A stretch of 53,111 bases of DNA from assembly GCA_963764715.1 (NCBI GenBank), contig CAVXTP010000025.1, positions 1 through 53,111 of the forward strand, written 5' to 3'. The translations under genes and the position numbers were made by a program. Shown one piece after another: positions 32,194 through 53,111 of this stretch (position 1 is its first letter; each line of letters starts with the position of its first letter). This DNA is from an uncultured Acidobacteriota bacterium. GTDB taxonomy: Bacteria > Acidobacteriota > Thermoanaerobaculia > UBA5066 > Gp7-AA6. The notes below the pieces were generated by a model, which saw only the letters and a program-made list of their open reading frames with translations, was not told where the DNA came from and did no database searches.

Positions 32194-34863
32194 CTAGAAG
32201 CGAAACGTCCGCGTCAGGAAGACGGCCATCTGTCCCCGGGTGACCGGGCTCGCCGGACAGTAAAGGTGCGCGCCGCATCCGCCGGTGATTCCGCGCCGCA
32301 GGAGCTCCTCGATCCAGTCCACGGCGAACCCGTCGGGGCACGGCACGTCGTCGAACACGCCCACGCAGTCGGCCGGCGAGTGGAACGGGCCGTAGATCGC
32401 CTTCAGGAGGAAAACGGCCATCTGTGCCCGCGTCACCGGCTGGTCCGGGCAGTAGAGCCCGCCTCCGCAGCCGCCCGTCACACCCTCGTTCGCGAGCTCC
32501 TCGATCCACGGCGCGTACGGGCTGCTGCACGGCACGTCGGGGAAGACGCCCTGACAGGGCGGCGGGACGAACTCCGGGACGTACGCGTTCTTCGCCTTGA
32601 CCACGAAGACCGCCATCTGGGCCCGCGTGATCGCCGCGTTCCGGCAGTAGCTCCCGGCCCCGCAGCCGGCGGTGATGCCCTTGCGGAAGATCGTTTCGAC
32701 GAACTCGTGGAAGCCGTCGCTCTGCGGGACGTCCAGAAAATCCGTCATCCAGAACCGCGACTGGAGGACGCGGCCGTTGTGCCACGTCAGCTCCAGGTCG
32801 TTCAGCGTCCCGGGCGGCGCGAGCCCCGGAACGACGCCGACGGCGAGCGCGCCGCCGTCGAGCGGGTTGCGGTGCACGTCCGTCAGCGGCACGCCGGAGA
32901 ACTTCGCGCCCAGCGGATCCTCCAGGTTGTACGCCGAGATCTTGACTGTCATGCCGCCGGCCGCCGGACCGGAGGTCGGCGTGCAGGCGCTGCGCGGCAG
33001 GTCCACGCTGCCGAGCTTGTCGCGGGACGACTCGGCGAAATAGATCCGACCGTCCGTCGCGACGGCGATGCCCTGCGCGCCGGCGAGCGTCGACGGCATG
33101 GGAATCTCGTCGATCGTGCCGGTCGGCGTCGTGATGCGGCCGATGCGGTCGCCCGAGAACTCCGTGAACCAGAGGCTGCCATCGGATCCCGCCGCAATCC
33201 CCAGGGCGCCGGCGCTGTCCGTCGGGATGTTGTGGGAATCGGTCTCGCCGTCGGGAGTCATCTTGACGATCTCGTTCGCAACGATGTCCGTGAACCAGAC
33301 GTTGCCGTCCGGCCCCGCGGCGATTCCCCAGGGAACGCTGGGACTCGCCGGCGTGTCGAACTCCACGGCGTCGCCCGAAGGAGTCATGCGCCCGATCTGG
33401 CCGGCGCCAGACTCGGCGAACCAGAGGTTGCCGTCGGCCCCGGCGGTGATGCCCTGCGGCCCCGAGGCCGCGGTGGGTATCGGAAATTCGGTGATCGTTC
33501 CGGCCGGCGTGATCCGGCCGACCTGGTTGGCGAGCGCCTCGGTGAACCACATGTTCCCGTCCGGGCCGAGGGCGATTCCGGAGGGTCCCGAGTCGAGGGT
33601 CGGTATCGGGAATTCGACGACGCCTCCGATGACGTCCGCCACGGCGATCCGGTTGGCTGCGTACTCGGCAACCCAGGCCCTACCGGCTCCGTCGACGGCG
33701 ATGCCGCGCGGCATTGAGTTCGGCGTCGGCAGCGGGAAGGGCGCCTCCGAGACGCCGGTGACCATGCGCACCACGCTGTTGGTGTCCGAGGCGGTGTACC
33801 AGACCGCCCCGCCGGGACCGGCGGCGACGCCGTAGAGGCCGGTGCCGAGTGGATCGAACTCGAGGATCGGGGCCACCCGGCCGATGCCGCCGGCCTCGGC
33901 AAACCACAGCGCCCCGTCGTAGCCGCTCCCGATGCCGAGCGGTGCGGACAGCGCGTCGGGCGTGTAGTAGGCCGTGAGGCTTCCGTCCTCCGAGACGCGT
34001 GCGATCCGTTCGGTGTCGGTGAGCGTCATCCACAGGCCGCCGTACGCGTCCCGAGCCATCGCGTGCGGGTGCGAAACGAGGAATCCGGGCCCCGGGATGG
34101 GAAATTCCGTCAGCACGCCGGCGGGGGTGATGCGGCCGAAGAGGTTGGCCTCGTTCTCGGCGAACCACAGGTTGCCGTCCCAGGCGTACGCGATCCCCTG
34201 GGGCGCGGCGCCGGAGTCCGGCAGCGAGTATTCCAGCAGGTCGTTGCCGTCGGGCCCGATCCGGCCAATTCGCCCGGCCTTGCGCTCGGTGAACCAGATC
34301 ACGCCGACCGGGCCCTCGACGATGCTCCACGGCTGCACCCAGTTCTGGGGCAGCGGGAACTCGACGATGGTCCCGTCGGAGGAGATGCGGCCGAGCTTCC
34401 CAACGCCGTCGGCCGACTCCGTGAACCAGAGGTACCCGCCCTGCGCCGGAGCGATGCCCTTCGGCGCGGCAGCCGCCGTCGGGAGCGGGAACTCGGTCAG
34501 CATTCCGCCGGGCGTCAGCCGGCCGATCCGGTTGCCGGTTTCCTCCGTGAACCAGAGGTTGCCGTCCTCGCCGGCCGCGATCGAGCGCGGCGTCGAGTTC
34601 GGCGACGGAAGCGGGAATCGCCGGTAGATGCCGAGCCGCGAGACGCGGCCGATCGCGTTGCCGTCGGGAAGCGTGAACCAGAGCCCCCCGTCCGGTCCCG
34701 CCGTGATCTCCGCAGGCCGGCCGACGTCGTCCCACGCCAGCGGTAAGTCCGTGAAGGTCTGCCCCGCCGCGGCCACGGTCAGCGCCGGGCAGGCGAGCGC
34801 CCCGAGAACGAGGACGCGCATCGCAAAGCGTCGGAAGCAGCGAAACGCAGGTCTGGACTCCAC
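32194..34863 (-). CDS. Secreted Vgb-lyase-like beta-propeller repeat protein with IPT/TIG-like and three Cys-containing SLH-like repeats
   Basis: About 14 'P.GI.AGPDGNLWFTE' repeats; C-terminal FxDVP...GITAGC...YC..TRAQMAVF x3; alternative start 34821. Confidence 0.88.
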   Translation of the reverse strand: MESRPAFRCFRRFAMRVLVLGALACPALTVAAAGQTFTDLPLAWDDVGRPAEITAGPDGGLWFTLPDGNAIGRVSRLGIYRRFPLPSPNSTPRSIAAGEDGNLWFTEETGNRIGRLTPGGMLTEFPLPTAAAAPKGIAPAQGGYLWFTESADGVGKLGRISSDGTIVEFPLPQNWVQPWSIVEGPVGVIWFTERKAGRIGRIGPDGNDLLEYSLPDSGAAPQGIAYAWDGNLWFAENEANLFGRITPAGVLTEFPIPGPGFLVSHPHAMARDAYGGLWMTLTDTERIARVSEDGSLTAYYTPDALSAPLGIGSGYDGALWFAEAGGIGRVAPILEFDPLGTGLYGVAAGPGGAVWYTASDTNSVVRMVTGVSEAPFPLPTPNSMPRGIAVDGAGRAWVAEYAANRIAVADVIGGVVEFPIPTLDSGPSGIALGPDGNMWFTEALANQVGRITPAGTITEFPIPTAASGPQGITAGADGNLWFAESGAGQIGRMTPSGDAVEFDTPASPSVPWGIAAGPDGNVWFTDIVANEIVKMTPDGETDSHNIPTDSAGALGIAAGSDGSLWFTEFSGDRIGRITTPTGTIDEIPMPSTLAGAQGIAVATDGRIYFAESSRDKLGSVDLPRSACTPTSGPAAGGMTVKISAYNLEDPLGAKFSGVPLTDVHRNPLDGGALAVGVVPGLAPPGTLNDLELTWHNGRVLQSRFWMTDFLDVPQSDGFHEFVETIFRKGITAGCGAGSYCRNAAITRAQMAVFVVKAKNAYVPEFVPPPCQGVFPDVPCSSPYAPWIEELANEGVTGGCGGGLYCPDQPVTRAQMAVFLLKAIYGPFHSPADCVGVFDDVPCPDGFAVDWIEELLRRGITGGCGAHLYCPASPVTRGQMAVFLTRTFRF

Positions 34864-44457: not shown

Positions 44458-44574
44458 GTAGGGGCGGGGGTTAACGCCGGCCGTTGGCCGGCGTTTCCTA
44501 TTTCCAGGGGCGGGCCGCTGGTGGACGGATGTCCCCGCCCTTCTTCATTGGGCGGCCACAAGGGCCGCCCCTAC
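44458..44574. repeat. GTAG-family REP doublet (REPIN-like), copy B
   Basis: GTAGGGGCGGGG...TCCCCGCCC...GGGCGGCCACAAGGGCCGCCCCTAC. Confidence 0.8.
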
Positions 44575-44579
44575 GGTTT

Positions 44580-46091
44580 CTAGGCGATCGTCGCGAGCTC
44601 GGCCAGGTAGTCCACGAAGGACCGGGTCGCGCCCTCGTAGCCCTGGACCTTCGGGTTGGACGACTCCAGCACGTAGAACTCGTCGGGGCCGTGGGCGCCG
44701 CTTCCATATCCGAGGCCGAAGTGGCCGGCCGGCAGTCGGAGCGGTTCTCCCGTGAAGACGTAGCCCGGCCACGAGCCGGCGTTGCGGGGCCAGAGGATCG
44801 GCGGGAGGCCGGCGCGCCCGTACACCGCCTGCTCGGCGCGGATGATCGCCGCGTCGGCGGCGGTGCTCGTCGGGTCGTAGCCGCCCGTCATGTTCACGTC
44901 GATGTCGCCGAAGCCGCGCGAGACGAGGTGCGCCTTGAGCGCCGCGAGCGCCTCGGAGGCCTTCATGTCCGGGACGAGCCGCAGGTCGAGCTTCGCGACC
45001 GCCTTGTGCGGAAGGACCGTCTTGCCGCCGGGGCCCGTGTAACCCCCGACGAGACCCTCGATGTTCACCGTCGGCCGCGAGACGAGCATCTCGAGCGCCT
45101 CCGGCCACGCGGCGTCCCCGATCCAGCGCGAGACGCCGAGCTGCTTTTTCGCGATGGCTTCATCCACGCGGCGCGACGCCTCCAGCACCATGGCCTTTTC
45201 GGCCGGCGAGATCGCCCGCGCCCGGTCCGCGAATCCGTCGATCGCCGGCGTGTTGCCGTCGGGCCCCACGAGCGTGTGGAGGGCCTGGACGAGGTGCCAG
45301 GCCGGGCTGTCGACGCGCGCCTTGTTGCTCGAGTGGACGTCCTTCGTCGGCCCGCGGCCCCAGCGCTCTCCGCTCGAGGTCAGCTCGCACTCGATCACGC
45401 CCTTGGCCCCGAGGCTGACCATCACCACGCCGTCCGGGCCCTGCGCCGCCGACGGCATGAAAACGCCGGAGCACCGGCCGAGGGCCTTCGCGACGTCCGG
45501 CGAGCGCACGATCTGCGGGAAGTGCGGCGAGCCGATCTCCTCCTCGCCTTCGGCGACGAGCACGAGGTTGACGGGCAGCCTCACCCCGGCGCCGCGGTAG
45601 GCGTGGAGCGCGGCGAGAAACGCCGACTCGGGGCCCTTCTGGTTCACGGCGCCGCGGCCGACGACGACGCGCCCGGTCTCGGGCTTCTCGACGATCGCGG
45701 CCTCGAACGGCGGCGACGTCCACTCCGACGGATCCACCTGCTTGACGTCGTACATGAAGTACACGCCGACCGTGCGGGGCGCGCCCGCGTCGAGCGTCGC
45801 GAAGACGCCGGGCTGGCCGTCGGTCGGGACCTTCACCGCGCCCTGGAACCCGGCATCCGTCAGCATCCGGATGAGGAGCTCGCAGCCTTCCGCCATCCCC
45901 CGGTTCTCGGCCGCGATCGACGGCAGGCGGATCCAGTCCTGCAGGCGCCGGACGGCCTCGGCGTTTCGCTTGCCGACCTCGGCGCGCACGCGGTCGAGGC
46001 CCGGCGTCGTCGGGCGCGCGCCGGCGGCAGGGGCGAGGGCCAGTCCGGCCGCGCCGGCGGCGACGTCGTGAAGAAATTCGCGGCGGTCCAT
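44580..46091 (-). CDS. Tat-exported M20/M25/M40-family metallopeptidase
   Basis: MDRREFL twin-arginine signal; MYDV, GRGAVNQKG, EGEEEIGS, DVHS, AHGPDE. Confidence 0.88.
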   Translation of the reverse strand: MDRREFLHDVAAGAAGLALAPAAGARPTTPGLDRVRAEVGKRNAEAVRRLQDWIRLPSIAAENRGMAEGCELLIRMLTDAGFQGAVKVPTDGQPGVFATLDAGAPRTVGVYFMYDVKQVDPSEWTSPPFEAAIVEKPETGRVVVGRGAVNQKGPESAFLAALHAYRGAGVRLPVNLVLVAEGEEEIGSPHFPQIVRSPDVAKALGRCSGVFMPSAAQGPDGVVMVSLGAKGVIECELTSSGERWGRGPTKDVHSSNKARVDSPAWHLVQALHTLVGPDGNTPAIDGFADRARAISPAEKAMVLEASRRVDEAIAKKQLGVSRWIGDAAWPEALEMLVSRPTVNIEGLVGGYTGPGGKTVLPHKAVAKLDLRLVPDMKASEALAALKAHLVSRGFGDIDVNMTGGYDPTSTAADAAIIRAEQAVYGRAGLPPILWPRNAGSWPGYVFTGEPLRLPAGHFGLGYGSGAHGPDEFYVLESSNPKVQGYEGATRSFVDYLAELATIA

Positions 46092-46109
46092 GCAGCTCCT
46101 TCCGCGCGC

Positions 46110-47834
46110 CTAGCGGCGCTTGAAGTACTTCTCGAGCTCGACCTCACCCATCGCCAGGACGACGGGGCGGCCGTGGGGGCAGGTGAAGCGGTCCTGGGTC
46201 TTCGACCAGTCCGCGATGAGCCGCCGGATCTCTTCCGGCGCGAGATGGTAGCGAATCGTGACCGCGGAACGGCAGGCGACGCTCGCGGCCAGCCGGTCGC
46301 GCCGGATCGCTTCGTCGCCCGGGCCGGCCTCGGCCAGGGCCGCGAGGGCCGCGTGCAGCGTCTGGCCCGGATCGCGGTCGGTGGCCTCGGCGGGAAGCGC
46401 CGCGATCGCGTAGGAGCTTCCCGACATCGGCTCGATCTCGAAGCCCGCGGCCGACAGGTCGGCCATGCGCGCGGCCAGCGTCTCGGCCTCCTCCGGAGTC
46501 GCCTCGAAAAGGACCCGCAGGAGCAGGCGCTGCGAGAGCATCCTCCCGGAGGCGATGCGGTCGCGGATGCGCTCGTAGAGCGTGCGCTCGTGGGCGGCGT
46601 GCTGGTCGATGATGAGGAGGCCCTCGTCCCCGGAGGCGACGATGTACGACTCCCGGTGCTGGCCGATCGGAAGAATCTCGGGAGCGCGCGGCGCCGGCTC
46701 CGGCGGCGGAGGCGCTTCGGCCGGCGGCGGCGCGGGCGGGACGCCGACCGGGGAGCCGGGAGGCGCGGCGAACGGGTCGCGGTAGGGCGCAGCACCCTCG
46801 GCCACGACGCCGCCCGAGGGGACCGAACGCAGCCGCCGTTCCTCCTTTCCGGCGAGAAGCGCCGAATGGAGCGAGTGATAGACGAGCCGGAACGCCGTCG
46901 CGGGATCGGCGAACCGGACCTGCGTCTTCGAGGGCGAGACGTTGACGTCGACCGCTCCCGGCTCGGCCGTCAGGAAGAGGAAGACGCCGGGGTGGCGGTC
47001 GATCCGGATCGCGTCCTTCGAGGCCTGCGTGATGGCTTTGGAGAGCGCGCGGTCCTCGACGGGCCGGCCGTTGACGAAGAGGTACTGGTAGCGCCGGCTC
47101 GGGAACGTCACCGCGCCCCGCGTCGCGTAGCCGGCCAGGCGCAGGGGACCGGACTTCGCCTCGAAGGCCTCGAGCTCGCCGAGCGTCGAGCGGCCGAAGA
47201 CCTGGAGGATCCTCGAGGCGCGGTCGACGGCGGCCGGCGCGTCGAGGGTCTGCCGGCCGTTGGAGGTCAGCGTGAACGCCACGGCGGGGTTCGACAGCGC
47301 GGCCTTCGTGACAGCGGCCGCGACGGCCCGCCCCTCCGCCTCGGGCGAGGAAAGGAACTTGCGCCGGGCCGGCGTCCGCGCGAAGAGGCTCTCGACGAGA
47401 ACGTCCGTGCCGCGCGGCCTCGCCGCGGGCTCCTCGCCCGGAGCCGCCCCGAACTCGATCCGCAGGCGCACGGCCTCCGGGCTCGACCCGTCCGCGGTCG
47501 TCAGCGTCAGGCGGGCGACCGAGGCGATCGAGGGCAACGCCTCGCCCCTGAACCCGTAGGTCCCGACGCGGACGAGGTCCTCATCCGAGGCGATTTTCGA
47601 GGTGGCGTGCCGCTCGAGCGCCAGGCGCGCGTCCTCGCGGCTCATGCCGGAGCCGTCGTCGCGGACGAGGATCCGGTCTCCCCCGCCGCCGTCGATCTCG
47701 ACGTCGATCCGGGACGCCCCCGCGTCGAGGGCGTTCTCGAGGAGCTCCTTGACCGCCGAGGCCGGCCGCTCGACGACCTCGCCGGCCGCGATGCGATCGA
47801 TGACGGCGCTCGACAAACGACGGATGCGAGGCAT
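46110..47834 (-). CDS. mutL: DNA mismatch repair protein MutL
   Basis: IAAGEVVERPASAVKELLENALDAG, GFRGEAL, DQHAAHER endonuclease motif, ACR, CPHGRP. Confidence 0.97.
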   Translation of the reverse strand: MPRIRRLSSAVIDRIAAGEVVERPASAVKELLENALDAGASRIDVEIDGGGGDRILVRDDGSGMSREDARLALERHATSKIASDEDLVRVGTYGFRGEALPSIASVARLTLTTADGSSPEAVRLRIEFGAAPGEEPAARPRGTDVLVESLFARTPARRKFLSSPEAEGRAVAAAVTKAALSNPAVAFTLTSNGRQTLDAPAAVDRASRILQVFGRSTLGELEAFEAKSGPLRLAGYATRGAVTFPSRRYQYLFVNGRPVEDRALSKAITQASKDAIRIDRHPGVFLFLTAEPGAVDVNVSPSKTQVRFADPATAFRLVYHSLHSALLAGKEERRLRSVPSGGVVAEGAAPYRDPFAAPPGSPVGVPPAPPPAEAPPPPEPAPRAPEILPIGQHRESYIVASGDEGLLIIDQHAAHERTLYERIRDRIASGRMLSQRLLLRVLFEATPEEAETLAARMADLSAAGFEIEPMSGSSYAIAALPAEATDRDPGQTLHAALAALAEAGPGDEAIRRDRLAASVACRSAVTIRYHLAPEEIRRLIADWSKTQDRFTCPHGRPVVLAMGEVELEKYFKRR

Positions 47835-47998
47835 TCGTCTCATCCTATCGCGCCGGTCCGGCGCGCTTCGTCGCGCCCCGACACCGGCTCGGCGAATACC
47901 GCAGCCGCCTCCGGAGCCGGCGTCGCCCGGCGTTTGCTCGCGACAAAGAGTAGGACGAGAGCCTCGCCGGCGAGCTCCCCCGAAAAGGAGTGGCGAAC

Positions 47999-50900
47999 AT
48001 GTCAAGAAAACTTCCGCGGACGCTCCTGCTCTGCCTGCTCGTGCTCACGGGGCGCCGGCTCGAGGCGCAGTCCGGACCCGACAACGATCCGGACGCCGCC
48101 CCCGGCTACACCAACAGCGTGTTCCATCACGACGCGTTCGACTCGATCAACATCTACAACGGCCAGCTCACGCTGCCGATCGCCCTCGGGCCCTCGTACC
48201 CGATCGGCCCCAGACTGCGGTTCCAGTTGAGCCTCGTTTACAACTCGCGCGTCGACGACTACGGCGCGCCCCTCCCCGGCCAGCAGCAGACGAGCTTCGT
48301 CTACAAGCCGCTCGCGGGCAACTCGTCGCTCCCGATCGGCTGGGAGATGTCGCTCGGCGCGATCAAGTCCTGCCGTCACGGAACCACGACCGCGCCCTGC
48401 TACGTCGCGCCGGACGGGAGCCAGCACCTCTTCGTCCGGAGCCAGGGCAACGGCAAGGTCACGGGCGACGGGAGCCAGTACTTCCTGAAGGGCGCCGGCC
48501 CGTACGAGATGTGGGACGGCGACGGCAACCACTACGTCTTCGACCAGCAGGCGGCCGGCTTCGACGACCCGCTGACCGACGGCTTTACCCACGACTTCGG
48601 GCGCGGCCGCGACGGCTGGTACCTGGGCTCCCTCCGCGATCCGCACGGCAACGGCTACAGCGCGACGTACTGGACGGGGACGCAGCCGCAGTGGACCTAC
48701 GGGACCTCGACCTGCAGCGCCGGAATCACGTCGTTGATGCAGATGCGGGCGCCCTCGGGAACGGGCGGCTGGGTCCCGAAGGACATCCGCCTGCCCTCGG
48801 GACAGTCGATTCACGTGGATCGCGGCCACAACGGCTTTCTCGACGGCATGGTTCTCTCGGCCACGTTTCCGGTCTTCGCCAACGGCGCGGCGACGACGCG
48901 GACATGGTCGTTCGTCTACGACTCGCCGTACGCCGGCTATGCACACTCGTGCGCGACGGGAACGGTGCCCGTCAACCTCCAGCGCCTGAAGGAGCTGAGG
49001 CTCCCGTCGGACCTCGCGGGCTCCCCGAAGTACCAGTTCTCCCAGTCGAGCCTGCTCACGAACCTGACGCTCCCGACGGGCGCCCGGGCCGAGTACTGCT
49101 ACGGGGGCTACGCGTTCTTCCACGGCCGCGCCGGCGCCCTCGCCCCGAACTGTCCGGGGCTCCCGCCGCCCTCGCAGGCCTTCACCACGGTCTCCCCGAC
49201 GGCCTTCCTCTGCGGGACTGCGATCGGAGACCCCGGCCCGCCGATCGAAGCCCGGGCTTCCTGCACCGAAGACAACGAGGCCCGCTGGATGGACTCCCAG
49301 GTCGGCGTCCTCAAGCGCACCGTGACCGAGCCGGTGCGGGGACGCGTCTCGACGACGACCTACACGCAGTACGCGTTCCCGTTCGGCGAGTCCGGCTCCG
49401 CGGCGTCGCCGGGAGAGCCCCAGACGCTCACGGTCGTCGTGCTTCCCGCGACCGACCAGAACGAGGCCGGCTCGCCCGGCCGCTCGCGGGCGCAGGCCAC
49501 CCTCTTCCTGTCGAGCCCGCGCGTCGTGCAGGCGCCCGCGGGAACGACGCGACCGAGCGTGCCCGGCGACCGGGTCGGCGCCGACGTCGAGCAGCGATTT
49601 TTCGAGACGGACCCCAACGTCGCGACGCCGGCCTCGCCCGCCTGCCCCGGCACCTCCGCCGACGCGAAGTTCTGCTCGAGCAAGTCGCTCCGCACGGTCC
49701 GGCGGACCTTCGAGTACGACGATGCCCTCAACCTCGAGGGCAACCGGCGCCTCCAGAGCGAGCGCACGATCCACGGCCCGGGCAACTGCACGAACTGCCC
49801 GTTCCATCTCGTCGCCCTTTCCAACTCCGCCGGCTCGTGGGAGGCAAACGGCCGCCACTACGAGAACGAGGCCCACTCGGGGTCGCTCGGCAACGACAGC
49901 CGCTCCACGTTCACGGACTGGGCGCCGGTCAACTGGTCGACCGGCCCCGACGCCGGCGAAGCCGTGCTGCCCAACCTCTTCGCCGAGCGCCGCGCGGCCG
50001 AGGGGTCCTCGGTCCGCGACGAATACTTCGAGTTCGACGCGACGAGCGGCTTCCTCCGGGGGTCCTTCGTTTACGACGCGGCCCGCGACATCGCCTTCCT
50101 CCGCTGCCGCTACCCGGACGGCGGCGGAAGTGTCGACAAGGAGTTCTCGAAATCCTTCGCGGCCGCGAGCCCGCCGCCGCCGGCGTACTGCTCCCTCAAC
50201 CATCCCGTATTCCCGTCCTCGGTCGGAACGGACGGAGACAGCTTCGGCAAGGACTACGCCTGGCAGAACGGCGAGCTTCTGTCGGCCCGCTGGATCAAGG
50301 GCCCGGTCGGTGCGCCGACCTTTCCGACGCGGAGCTATGCCCGCGACGCCACCACGGGCTGGGTTCTTTCCTCGAGCGACACCGCGGGCCTGACGACCCG
50401 CTACGCCTACGACGCCCTGGGTCGCGTCACGCAGATCACGCCTGCGGCCGCCGGCGAGCTGAAGACCTGGGTCTGCTACGAGGGCCCGAACGCCACGACG
50501 GCCTACCGGGCCGCGTCCGCCCAGGCCTGCCCGGTCCCGGCGTCGAACGCCGGCGCGAAGACCTGGGAGCACTTCGACTACGACGGCCTCGGCCGTCTCA
50601 CGCGGGAGAGGACGGTCCGTCCCGGGGCCGGGGTCGCCAAGCGGTTCCACCTCTTCGACGCCGCCGGCAACGCGTACTTCCGTTCCGAATGGATCGCCGA
50701 CGTCGTGGGCGAGTCCATCGTCGCCAATCTCGCAACGGCCTGCGTCTTTGCGGGCGGCAACTTCCCCACGTCCCGCCCGTCGTCGGCTCCGGGGACCTCC
50801 AGCCTGTGCTTCGACCCCTTCGGCCGCGCGCAGCAGATCGTGGGAGCCAAGCACTCGAGCCTCGTCACGGTCGACCGGCGGGACGGGCCCGTCGTCTACA

Positions 50901-53111
50901 GCGACACGGCCGAGGCGATACTGACCTACTGTCTCAACGGCACGTTCGCGAACCTGCAGTCGGCGGCCTGCTCGACCGGCGGCCTGAACGCGACGACCCA
51001 GGTCCGCAAGGACGCCTTCGGCCGGACGATCACGGTCACCGAGCCGACGGGGGACGTGACGACGTACGCCTACGACGTCAATTCGAAGCTCACCCGCGTC
51101 ACTCAGGGCGCCCAGTCCCGCACCTACGGCTTCGACGCCGCGGGAATGCTGCGCGAGGAGACGACGCCGGAAGGCGGGAAGGTGACGTACGACGCCGTCG
51201 GCACCCTGGGCAACGTCCGGCAGGAATCGCGGCCCGGAAACCTCGTCGTGACCCGCCAGTTCGACTTCGCGGGACGCGTCACGCGCGAGGACGCCGGCGG
51301 CTCGAAGCATGCCGTGCACTGTTACGACGGCTCAGGCGCCTGCGCCGACGGCTCGCCCAACTTCCCGGGCGGCGCGAGCCCCGGCGGAAAGCTGACCCGG
51401 CGCTACGGCTACAACTTCCTTCCCACCGCCGGACCCGTCGTGGACGAGACCTTCGAATACGGCGCTCCGGGAGGCCGGCTCTCGAAGCTGACGACGGCCG
51501 CGGGCAACGGCGGCCTGACCGCGTCCGCTTCGCAAACCTGGACCTACGACGCCCTCGGCCTGCCCGCCTCGCACGCTCATCCCCGGCTCGCGGGCTCCCC
51601 CGCCTTTCCGGTGACGATCGGCTACGGGTACGGGCTTCCCGTCTCGATCGTCGCGAACGGGCAGTCCGTCGTTCCCGCGGCGGCGTACGGGCCGTCCGCG
51701 GCCCTGTCGTCCTGGACCGCCGGGAACTCCGGCACACCCGTCGTCACGACGATTTCGCCCGACGCGAGCCTCCTTCCCCGGCCGGCCAGCATCTCGAACG
51801 CTCTCTGGAGCTCGGGCGCCTACGCCTACGACGGCGCGGGCGACATCCTCAGGCTCGGAGGAAGCGACGCCTTCACCTACGATTCCCGCGCCCGCCTGAC
51901 CTCGGCGCGGTTCGGCTCGGTCAGCCGCGCTTTCGGCTACGACCGCTGGGGCAACCTCACCCGGAACGGCTCGACCGTGTTCACCGTCGACTCGCTCACC
52001 AATCGCGTCACGTCGGGCGGCGCGCAGTACGACGCGCGGGGCAACCTGATCTCGGCCAACGGCGAGTCGATGGCCTGGGATCTCCTCGACCGCCAGTACC
52101 GCAACACCGGCCCGGGCGCCGACTGGGTCTACGTCTTCGCCGGCTCCGGCGAGCGCGTCGCGAAGTTCCCGGCGAAGGTCGCCGTTCTCAGGCGCGAGAT
52201 GGCCCGCTACGTGGCCGAGGCCAACGTTCTCGCGAAGGGCTGGTCGGTCCCGGCCTGCGCCGGATCGTTCGCGGACGTCGACTGCTCGGACCCCGACGCT
52301 CGGCACATCCAGCTCGTCTACGAGAAGAACGTCACCGGCGGCTGCGGCGGCGTTCCGCTCCAGTACTGTCCGGACGCGCCGCTCACGCGCGCGCAGATGG
52401 CGGTCTTCGTCGTCAAGGGTTACAAACCCGACGGCTTCGTGCCCCCGGCCTGCGCGGGAACTTTCCAGGACGTCTCGTGCGCCGGCCCGTATGCGCCGTT
52501 TGCCCCCTGGATCGAGCAGCTCTACCGGGACGGCGTCACCGCCGGCTGCAGCGCCGGCCCGCTCCAGTTCTGTCCCGGCAGCTCCGTCGGCGAATGGGAG
52601 ATGCTCGTCTGGCTCGCGAAAGCCCCCGGATCGACGCCCGGCTCATCCTTCTGGAGCGCGTACCATCCCGTGCCGCGCGGCACGATCTATACTTTCCGCG
52701 ACGACTCCAATCGCATCGTGACCGAGATGGCGGGCGGCTCGACCGGCTCTGCGACGGCCACCCTGTCGGTGACCCGGGACAACGTCTTCCTCGGCAACCT
52801 CCTCGTCGCCTCCTCGGTCGCCTCCCCGGTCGGGTGGCAGTACACGACCTCGGACCACCTCGGCAGCCCCCGCATCGTCTTCAACCAGTCCGGCCAGGTC
52901 GTCGAGACCCACAAGTACTGGCCGTACGGGGAGGACACGACGGGCACTCCTCCAACCCAGCGCCTCGCCTACTGCCTGATGGAGCGCGACGCCGAGTCCA
53001 CGCGCTTCTACGACCACGCGCGGACGCACGATCACGCCCTGGGAAGGTTCCTTTCGCCGGACCGCCTCGGAGGCACGCCCCGGGATCCGCAGTCGTGGAA
53101 CCGGTACGCGT
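47999..53111 (+). CDS. Signal-peptide-bearing Rhs/YD-repeat protein (>1700 aa, C-terminus outside window) with internal SLH-like module
   Basis: AAGGAG RBS, MSRKLPRTLLLCLLVLTGRRLEA|Q; DSINIYNGQLTL...LVYNS; many YD..GR repeats; DHLGSPR..YWPYGE; ends GRFLSPD...DPQSWNRYA in the same frame. Confidence 0.93.
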   Translation, partial: MSRKLPRTLLLCLLVLTGRRLEAQSGPDNDPDAAPGYTNSVFHHDAFDSINIYNGQLTLPIALGPSYPIGPRLRFQLSLVYNSRVDDYGAPLPGQQQTSFVYKPLAGNSSLPIGWEMSLGAIKSCRHGTTTAPCYVAPDGSQHLFVRSQGNGKVTGDGSQYFLKGAGPYEMWDGDGNHYVFDQQAAGFDDPLTDGFTHDFGRGRDGWYLGSLRDPHGNGYSATYWTGTQPQWTYGTSTCSAGITSLMQMRAPSGTGGWVPKDIRLPSGQSIHVDRGHNGFLDGMVLSATFPVFANGAATTRTWSFVYDSPYAGYAHSCATGTVPVNLQRLKELRLPSDLAGSPKYQFSQSSLLTNLTLPTGARAEYCYGGYAFFHGRAGALAPNCPGLPPPSQAFTTVSPTAFLCGTAIGDPGPPIEARASCTEDNEARWMDSQVGVLKRTVTEPVRGRVSTTTYTQYAFPFGESGSAASPGEPQTLTVVVLPATDQNEAGSPGRSRAQATLFLSSPRVVQAPAGTTRPSVPGDRVGADVEQRFFETDPNVATPASPACPGTSADAKFCSSKSLRTVRRTFEYDDALNLEGNRRLQSERTIHGPGNCTNCPFHLVALSNSAGSWEANGRHYENEAHSGSLGNDSRSTFTDWAPVNWSTGPDAGEAVLPNLFAERRAAEGSSVRDEYFEFDATSGFLRGSFVYDAARDIAFLRCRYPDGGGSVDKEFSKSFAAASPPPPAYCSLNHPVFPSSVGTDGDSFGKDYAWQNGELLSARWIKGPVGAPTFPTRSYARDATTGWVLSSSDTAGLTTRYAYDALGRVTQITPAAAGELKTWVCYEGPNATTAYRAASAQACPVPASNAGAKTWEHFDYDGLGRLTRERTVRPGAGVAKRFHLFDAAGNAYFRSEWIADVVGESIVANLATACVFAGGNFPTSRPSSAPGTSSLCFDPFGRAQQIVGAKHSSLVTVDRRDGPVVYSDTAEAILTYCLNGTFANLQSAACSTGGLNATTQVRKDAFGRTITVTEPTGDVTTYAYDVNSKLTRVTQGAQSRTYGFDAAGMLREETTPEGGKVTYDAVGTLGNVRQESRPGNLVVTRQFDFAGRVTREDAGGSKHAVHCYDGSGACADGSPNFPGGASPGGKLTRRYGYNFLPTAGPVVDETFEYGAPGGRLSKLTTAAGNGGLTASASQTWTYDALGLPASHAHPRLAGSPAFPVTIGYGYGLPVSIVANGQSVVPAAAYGPSAALSSWTAGNSGTPVVTTISPDASLLPRPASISNALWSSGAYAYDGAGDILRLGGSDAFTYDSRARLTSARFGSVSRAFGYDRWGNLTRNGSTVFTVDSLTNRVTSGGAQYDARGNLISANGESMAWDLLDRQYRNTGPGADWVYVFAGSGERVAKFPAKVAVLRREMARYVAEANVLAKGWSVPACAGSFADVDCSDPDARHIQLVYEKNVTGGCGGVPLQYCPDAPLTRAQMAVFVVKGYKPDGFVPPACAGTFQDVSCAGPYAPFAPWIEQLYRDGVTAGCSAGPLQFCPGSSVGEWEMLVWLAKAPGSTPGSSFWSAYHPVPRGTIYTFRDDSNRIVTEMAGGSTGSATATLSVTRDNVFLGNLLVASSVASPVGWQYTTSDHLGSPRIVFNQSGQVVETHKYWPYGEDTTGTPPTQRLAYCLMERDAESTRFYDHARTHDHALGRFLSPDRLGGTPRDPQSWNRYA

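Follow-up and report, generated by a model that had tools for sequence, protein, structure and literature searches.

A shortened S-layer homology module nested in the YD-repeat shell of a putative Rhs polymorphic toxin of Thermoanaerobaculia

Introduction

The WapA toxins of Bacillus subtilis and Streptococcus suis consist of a Sec signal, a wall-binding part, an Rhs shell and a polymorphic toxin, and an immunity gene lies next to them (PMC12704120). Teneurin-like proteins (TLPs) are YD-shell toxins in which S-layer homology (SLH) or wall-binding domains occupy a variable N-terminal region (10.1101/2025.11.11.687626). In the mosquito protein SGS1 and in TcB, domains inserted in the Rhs/YD repeats decorate the exterior of the shell, two of those in SGS1 being sugar-binding (PMC9935623). 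The SLH fold itself has a parallel three-helix core to which lobe helices are added, and the primary ligand pocket of SpaA draws on Arg43 (in the motif TRAE) from SLH1, the Gly29 loop from SLH2 and Trp13 from SLH3 (PMC6081394). In this work we describe an Rhs/YD-repeat gene at the end of a 53,111-nucleotide stretch of DNA, contig CAVXTP010000025.1 of assembly GCA_963764715.1, from an uncultured acidobacterium of the Thermoanaerobaculia. This whole stretch is referred to as the window. The protein encoded by the gene carries an SLH module between two strands of its shell.

The family to which this protein belongs resembles WapA in its signal-like N-terminus and Rhs shell and, in the homologs, in a variable tail with an adjacent open reading frame (ORF). 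It differs in that the wall-binding part of WapA is N-terminal (LysM or other repeats), whereas here an SLH module is nested in a hairpin and the host is a diderm acidobacterium. With the TLPs it shares a YD-shell container, variable and putatively toxic C-termini and a candidate immunity gene downstream; the domains that define the TLPs, however, are FN-plug and NHL, and Pfam detects neither one in the window protein. In SGS1 and the Tc proteins, as here, domains are inserted within the YD repeats, and the model of the window shell matches both 8fjp and TcdB2-TccC3. The inserts of those proteins are a beta-sandwich carbohydrate-binding module, a lectin and propellers, SLH modules being absent from all of them, and SGS1 is a eukaryotic salivary protein while Tc is an ABC toxin. 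The Rhs effectors of type VI secretion systems (T6SS), such as RhsA (7q97), Tse15 (8uxt) and Rhs1 (7pq5), have the same YD cocoon and, as is predicted for the window protein, an Rhs-associated core and a C-terminal toxin, but the window protein lacks a PAAR or VgrG-type domain and possesses a signal-like N-terminus and the SLH insert.

In a literature search that covered few subscription journals, no paper came up that describes SLH nested within the shell of an Rhs protein. The original prediction for this locus, made from the letters of the window, held that no description of such an architecture was known, and this was too strong, given the inserted sugar-binding domains of SGS1 (PMC9935623) and the N-terminally anchored WapA and TLP proteins. 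We regard the architecture as a variant of the known surface fixing of Rhs toxins, of which the nesting of an SLH module in a shell hairpin is the new part.

Results

The insert occupies a hairpin of the YD-repeat shell

The gene and the strand pairs that frame the insert are as follows.

47990..53110, plus strand: Rhs/YD-repeat protein gene, 1707 codons in view, with its 3' end beyond the window
52121..52171, plus strand: YD-repeat strand pair before the insert (...DWVYVFAGSGERVAKFP), modelled strands E3-7 and E13-18, with G9, E12 and R13 invariant in a 36-sequence alignment
52676..52726, plus strand: YD-repeat strand pair after the insert (RGTIYTFRDDSNRIVTE), modelled strands E190-194 and E200-204

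The insert, residues 1395-1561 of the protein, comprises about 167 residues (52172-52674) between the YD-repeat strands '...GERVAKFP' and 'RGTIYTFRDD...', and its site lies about 80 residues ahead of the Rhs-associated core. The occupancy of this site was classified in the 150 best matches of an exhaustive search of representatives, for which the query included the insert, so that the counts are not frequencies. An SLH insert, with a gap of 151-182 residues between the strands, is present in 42 of these proteins. The site is empty in another 42, where -1 to 12 residues separate the strands (for example 'SERVAKLPGGGTLQYTYRDE'). A different segment of 129-145 residues occupies the same hairpin in 10 proteins, and in 6 the site is empty and a full SLH triple is found further upstream in the shell. 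The remaining matches are 20 SLH proteins without Rhs flanks, 29 fragments and one odd protein.

Among 45 genomic loci that were fetched, 42, from different metagenome-assembled genomes (MAGs), carry the insert in place and in frame; two of the 42 hold the last 33 insert residues only, the contig beginning there. The other three are L043, in which the site is empty, and L042 and L044, which contain only the downstream part. Two elements of the original prediction can be judged from these data. It had described about 165 residues lodged between Rhs strands that are normally adjacent, and the short gap in the 42 relatives and in L043 bears this out. It had also named misassembly as a possible undoing of the idea, and this is ruled out because 42 of 45 independent loci have the insert in place. 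The G+C content of the insert and its third-position G+C (GC3) match those of the rest of the gene.

The lengths of shell and tail are nearly the same with and without the module. Full-length proteins that carry the insert (64) have a median of 1242 residues before the site region, and those that lack it (22) have 1230; the medians after the core in the same two sets are 207 and 199, so that the cargo is not reduced.

The insert is an SLH module

For comparison we used a second SLH region, which belongs to another protein of the window.

32194..32790, minus strand: canonical C-terminal Cys-bearing SLH triple of a Vgb-lyase-like beta-propeller protein, with three units by the unit hidden Markov model (HMM)

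The whole of this Vgb-lyase/NHL-type protein (32194-34863, minus strand) has a signal-like N-terminus in addition to the canonical C-terminal triple, which scores 56.7 bits against Pfam SLH (PF00395). BLASTP aligns the insert with the triple over 151 residues at 39% identity (E 8e-27). The 11-mer TRAQMAVFVVK, whose identity in the two proteins had been remarked on at the outset, is indeed common to both, with 30 of 33 nucleotides identical.

Against Pfam SLH, 27 of 36 aligned family members give a match at E<=0.01 (two of the 36 rows, L026 and L040, are partly frameshifted), and several members exceed the cut-off as whole proteins, among them P0057 with 36.9 bits and P0047 with 35.7 bits. An HMM scan of this kind had been proposed as a check; it succeeds for most of the family and fails for the window copy, which reaches 17.5 bits where 20.8 are needed. 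A profile of the family matches SLH structures in the PDB, namely Sap (9g93, 2.4e-10), 3pyw (1.4e-9) and SbsB (4aq1, 4.3e-7). The insert alone, searched as a single sequence, yields chance-level PDB matches (best E 0.042, to a fatty acid synthase), and a profile is therefore needed. An AlphaFold2 model that spans the insert and the strands on either side of it, from a 52-row alignment, has a predicted local distance difference test score (pLDDT) of 92.2 and a predicted template modelling score (pTM) of 0.86. When this model was submitted to Foldseek, the 14 best PDB matches were all SLH trimers of Sap or SpaA (probability 1.00), with target-normalised TM-scores of 0.57-0.67 over about 150 aligned columns. 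By these profile matches and by the AlphaFold fold, the insert is a true SLH module, as the original prediction had maintained.

The module is truncated and not permuted

An HMM of 48 positions, describing one repeat unit, was built from 171 units of 67 non-Rhs proteins. With this HMM and the structural model, the insert is divided as follows.

52184..52225, plus strand: remnant of SLH repeat 1, the core helix alone (VLRREMARYVAEAN), in which the TRAE motif keeps its Arg and Glu; modelled helix 25-39
52268..52417, plus strand: complete SLH repeat, unit 1, with a TRAQ motif and two Cys pairs; unit HMM 68.7 bits, 1.7e-23; modelled helices 61-69 and 91-102
52463..52621, plus strand: complete SLH repeat, unit 2, with the degenerate motif VGEW, which has no Arg; unit HMM 50.2 bits, 1e-17; modelled helices 126-137 and 159-167
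52622..52675, plus strand: return linker to the shell (APGSTPGSSFWSAYHPVP), not a repeat fragment; modelled as coil, pLDDT 88-94, with Y182, P184 and P186 invariant

The insert is thus an N-terminally truncated SLH triple, in which repeat 1 is reduced to its core helix and is followed by two full repeats and then a linker. The remnant is weak by the unit HMM alone (0.7 bits, to the last helix of the unit), and hhalign places it on the repeat profile in the correct register with E 0.0015; its residues R25, R26, E27, R30, E34 and N36 do not vary among the 36 aligned sequences. In the closing piece the unit HMM detects no repeat start, hhalign aligns inter-repeat linker columns only (E 0.14), and the model contains no helix.

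The original prediction had taken the module to be circularly permuted, opening with the second half of a repeat and closing with a piece resembling a first half. The opening was read correctly, since it is the last helix of a repeat, but the closing piece is linker only. A circularly permuted SLH is rejected: the missing first half of repeat 1 is absent from the tail, which matches no repeat start by HMM, by hhalign or in the model.

Five helices (25-39, 61-69, 91-102, 126-137 and 159-167) are modelled between the YD strands and the tail is coil, so that three helices are of the core type and two are lobe helices. The module is accordingly modelled as an SLH trimer minus one lobe, with three core helices and two lobes. 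Exactly two units were counted in 91 of 92 inserts of the type found in the window, which we call A-type. Among the 67 non-Rhs carriers of Cys-type SLH, by comparison, 65 have three units, and in 63 the last unit ends no more than 25 residues from the C-terminus. Three complete tandem repeats, the canonical pseudo-trimer, are not found in the insert, which has two units and a core helix.

The module is homologous in sequence and fold to the canonical SLH domains of Bacillus anthracis Sap, Paenibacillus alvei SpaA and Geobacillus stearothermophilus SbsB, and it has an Arg of the TRAE type. In those proteins, however, three full repeats stand at an end of the protein, whereas here two and a third are found inside another domain. 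The window module differs from them further in its eight conserved Cys, its missing lobe and a third motif devoid of Arg. The eight Cys are invariant or nearly so in the inserts, and their spacing suggests four short-range disulfides.

The residues of one ligand groove are retained

The residues that line the SpaA pocket were located in the A-type inserts. The remnant helix has the pattern R[RK][ED] in 87 of 92; LRRE is the commonest form (61), and TRRE occurs in several divergent members. In unit 1 the Gly is present in 90 of 91 inserts and the motif Arg in all 91, and the Trp position is variable. In unit 2 the Trp position is aromatic in 86 of 91 inserts, the Gly is conserved in 90 of 91, and none of the 91 has the motif Arg. 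When mapped in this way, by motifs rather than by coordinates, exactly one complete ligand groove appears to survive.

Identity to the window was determined in 29 loci. The insert has a median of 71%, against 59% for the segment of the shell that precedes it and 76% for the one that follows, and the insert exceeds the preceding segment in 24 of the 29. We take the insert to be under purifying selection.

Distribution of the insert and of other hairpin domains

The nesting of SLH in an Rhs shell is conserved and syntenic in Thermoanaerobaculia, yet it is optional. With one exception, the named sources of carriers are Thermoanaerobaculia or Acidobacteriota. The exception is a 3431-bp contig (L029, DASQYQ010000527.1) that holds an Rhs fragment with the insert and is binned as Sphingomicrobium, probably by a binning error. 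The gene order upstream of the Rhs gene in the window (arginase, extracytoplasmic function (ECF) sigma factor, LiaF-like, in some cases M20, and mutL) is common to 32 of the 45 loci, which marks the locus as a stable part of the chromosome whose tip can be exchanged. The relatives with an empty site are likewise Acidobacteriota.

A quick tree of the flanking shell was computed from 94 rows and 298 columns, and should be read with the shortness of this alignment and the recombination of Rhs tips in mind. Carriers of the insert and proteins with an empty site are interleaved in it. The A-type distribution needs 7 changes, of which well-supported branches force at least 2, and an approximately unbiased (AU) test does not reject a single clade of insert carriers (p 0.477).

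In a second Rhs family, also from Thermoanaerobaculia, a full three-unit SLH is found in another hairpin, some 170-200 residues upstream of the window-type site, at the equivalent of residues 1190-1239, approximately, of the window protein (window positions 51560-51700, approximately). Its members are P0188 (residues ~1067-1307), P0183, P0187, P0209, P0217 and P0260. They form one clade in the flank tree, and their triple looks like an independent insertion. Among the 120 proteins listed, many with an Rhs annotation span the whole query region, and a member of this second family is labelled 'S-layer homology domain-containing protein' by NCBI.

The alternative segment at the window-type hairpin (the equivalent of window position 52172) is a domain of 129-145 residues with the pattern '..TITPCR.LDTR ... 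D.SGYY'. It occurs in a separate Rhs clade, again a single one in the flank tree, represented by P0205 (residues 1288-1420), P0201, P0203, P0218, P0224, P0225, P0235, P0236, P0246 and P0255. Searches with this domain gave no Pfam match and no PDB sequence match, and in the Atlas unnamed clusters only, at 0.83.

Outside the Rhs proteins, a great number of secreted proteins in the lineage are tagged with the Cys-bearing SLH triple, including pyrroloquinoline quinone (PQQ) sugar dehydrogenases, S8 and M14 peptidases, and FG-GAP and IPT/TIG repeat proteins. It is found as well in proteins named as Chloroflexota (P0333, P0334, P0357 and P0368).

Some of the Rhs genes are broken by frameshifts (L004, L016, L018, L022, L024, L026, L040 and L045). 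These are mostly on long-read MAG contigs, and the frameshifts may be sequencing errors or may mark pseudogenes. P0113 looks like a truncated ORF from such a gene.

Tails and downstream ORFs of the homologs

The Rhs-associated core is entered shortly before the window ends.

52913..53110, plus strand: start of the Rhs-associated core (KYWPYGE...), TIGR03696, residues 1643-1707, 26.1 bits against a cut-off of 32.5; the match stops at the window end

The visible part of the core is its first 65 residues, and the toxin tail and any immunity gene are outside the window. We therefore turn to the homologs, in most of which, when full-length, the core runs on to ...NP.K.(V/I)DP.G and is followed by a variable tail. 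Past the ...RYAY..NP.K..DP.G core, column conservation goes down from roughly 0.8 to roughly 0.4. The tails are about 200 residues long and fall into several unrelated classes, two with GxSxG-like elbows, one with a '..H..II' start, two with HExxH, and others. Class 1 gives a weak alpha/beta-hydrolase signal, consisting of a PDB match to the thioesterase 6vap (4.8e-5) and a Pfam Thioesterase match below the cut-off; class 2 has no match in the PDB.

In the fetched loci a small ORF begins between -27 and +72 nucleotides from the Rhs stop codon, and its sequence tracks the class of the tail. When 41 of these adjacent ORFs were scored on a crude scale, at least two hydrophobic segments were seen in 25. 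Searches of the downstream ORFs against Pfam gave no meaningful match. The G+C content of the 1 kb downstream is lower, at 0.56-0.73. The variable tails and the co-varying small ORFs of the homologs support the view that this is a polymorphic-toxin family, as judged from sequence. This part of the original prediction, for which a search for variable C-termini and immunity genes had been advised, is supported by the homologs, in that the tails vary and the adjacent ORF varies with them.

Other features of the downstream regions were noticed. Some loci have extra immunity-like ORFs. In one (L031:15387-16042) an orphan C-terminal Rhs cassette, extending from the middle of the insert through the core, lies downstream of the main gene, which is expected if the recombination that swaps tips extends into the SLH insert. 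A conserved ORF of about 185-200 residues ('..SQAVDEHPVWSPDG..'), without a Pfam match, recurs behind Rhs genes of differing tail class (L008:14173-14760, and also L001, L002, L003, L013, L026, L030, L040 and L042); this may be one more gene of the immunity type, or unrelated. A two-gene pair is found behind the Rhs-immunity region in several loci (L002:15312-15922, L011, L016, L005 and L040), and judged by eye its members resemble a Phd/YefM-type antitoxin and a PIN-type toxin.

The host gene and its surroundings

The G+C content of the window is 65-73%, and because of this long spurious ORFs occur on both strands. The frame 47990-53110 was chosen as the true gene by its third-position G+C (GC3 0.92), and its probable start codon is the ATG at 47999. 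By the same measure the ORF at 44484-48230 on the plus strand (1248 residues), which overlaps the M20 and mutL genes, is a high-G+C artefact, as are other long ORFs in the wrong frame or on the wrong strand. To the eye, the N-terminus of the Rhs protein looks like a Sec signal peptide.

The protein matches Pfam RHS_repeat (PF05593) with E 1.5e-17 and TIGR01643 with E 2.6e-14, in addition to the start of TIGR03696. At E<=1 Pfam returns RHS_repeat alone and no PAAR, VgrG-type, FN-plug or NHL domain; it is on this result that the statement that PAAR and VgrG-type domains are lacking is based. An AlphaFold2 model of residues 508-1707, from a 46-row alignment, is almost entirely beta (pLDDT 80.4, pTM 0.75); among solved structures it matches the shells of Rhs, Tc and teneurin proteins, with E values down to 2.9e-27. 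A feature search with residues 28-720 returned Rhs-type clusters only, which is a lead and not a test.

The neighbours of the Rhs gene are housekeeping genes, with mutL upstream and divergently transcribed. There are no T6SS genes among the annotated genes of the window, and scans of the window for tRNAs, Rfam families and promoters produced nothing that bears on the SLH insert.

Discussion

The best explanation of these results, to which we give slightly better than even credence, is that the gene product is an Rhs polymorphic-toxin container, exported by Sec, into which a shortened SLH module is built that binds a glycopolymer of the envelope and tethers the container to the cell surface. 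Export would be by the Sec route; the protein and the genes of the window give no sign of type VI secretion. The module, which occupies a single hairpin close to the C-terminal end of the YD-repeat shell, would be positioned on the shell's outer face and would bind the same envelope glycopolymer as the C-terminal SLH triples of the lineage. This binding would keep the loaded container at the cell surface, while the C-terminus would be left free for an exchangeable toxin and the interior of the shell for cargo. An outer-face position is favoured, indirectly, by the equal lengths of shell and cargo with and without the insert, by the existence of another domain at the same hairpin, and by the exterior inserts of SGS1. 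A sequence search with the C-terminal 707 residues against solved Rhs structures gave weak repeat matches, none of them spanning the insertion site. We infer, reasonably in our view, that the protein may be surface-tethered, as had been predicted from the sequence of the window.

Several considerations weigh against this explanation. Acidobacteriota are diderm. In the literature searched, we found no SLH-polymer system described for them, and a ligand might lie in the periplasm or on the surface. The loss of one lobe and of the third motif Arg means that binding may differ from that of canonical SLH domains or may be absent. The window insert scores below the Pfam SLH cut-off (E 0.0042), and does so with its flanks too (16.5 bits). 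Finally, close relatives without the insert are interleaved with carriers, and the insert is therefore dispensable for the shell.

A different role for a glycan-binding module is target recognition, in which a released container would dock on the envelope polymer of neighbouring cells instead of being anchored to its own. The domains inserted on the SGS1 shell and on the TcB propeller have been interpreted as receptor domains (PMC9935623). In addition, the presence of an alternative domain at the same hairpin in another clade is as expected of swappable receptor binders, and shells have two insertion sites. However, dozens of secreted enzymes that are unrelated to one another bear the same module as a C-terminal tag, and for these retention by the producer cell is the simpler account; and the insert is conserved, at its median of 71% identity to the window, whereas the tails vary. 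We consider target recognition unlikely as the main role, if still deserving of attention, and it is compatible with self-anchoring if kin cells share the polymer. It is a good deal less probable, in our estimation, that the module no longer binds glycan and instead braces the structure, or forms a lid or latch that controls, for example, opening or autoproteolysis. Such a function would suit a site so close to the Rhs-associated core, the loss of a lobe and of the third Arg, and a return linker that is invariant at several residues and confidently modelled. Yet conservation within the insert is highest at the residues of one complete ligand groove, and no brace is needed, since shell and cargo are just as long in relatives whose site is empty. 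The suggestion that the insert is an assembly artefact, or a recent neutral insertion without function, can draw on the fact that the gene runs off the end of the window and that several related long-read MAG loci are frameshifted. An artefact is in practice ruled out by the in-frame, in-place insert of 42 of the 45 loci and by their shared synteny (32 of 45), and the gene-like G+C and GC3 and the purifying selection also speak against both forms of this suggestion, which we find extremely improbable.

The locus may say something broader about Thermoanaerobaculia. We put forward, tentatively and as possible rather than probable, that these bacteria use a Cys-stabilised system of SLH-polymer display; that they possess a T6SS-independent, contact-dependent Rhs toxin, encoded at a core-genome locus and held at the envelope by a minimal SLH with a single groove; and that YD hairpins are general display sites that have been used repeatedly. 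The last point is supported by the two sites of SLH insertion and from the alternative domain at the window-type site.

How Rhs toxins that do not depend on the T6SS reach the cell surface and remain there is poorly understood, above all in Gram-negative bacteria. The family described here constitutes a natural experiment, in which close relatives have the insert, an empty site, another domain at the same hairpin or a full SLH triple elsewhere in the shell. The smallest SLH unit that evolution has kept would be one with a single groove, and this could guide work on ligand binding by SLH domains. As a whole, the findings suggest an unstudied SLH-based system of surface display in uncultured soil Acidobacteriota.

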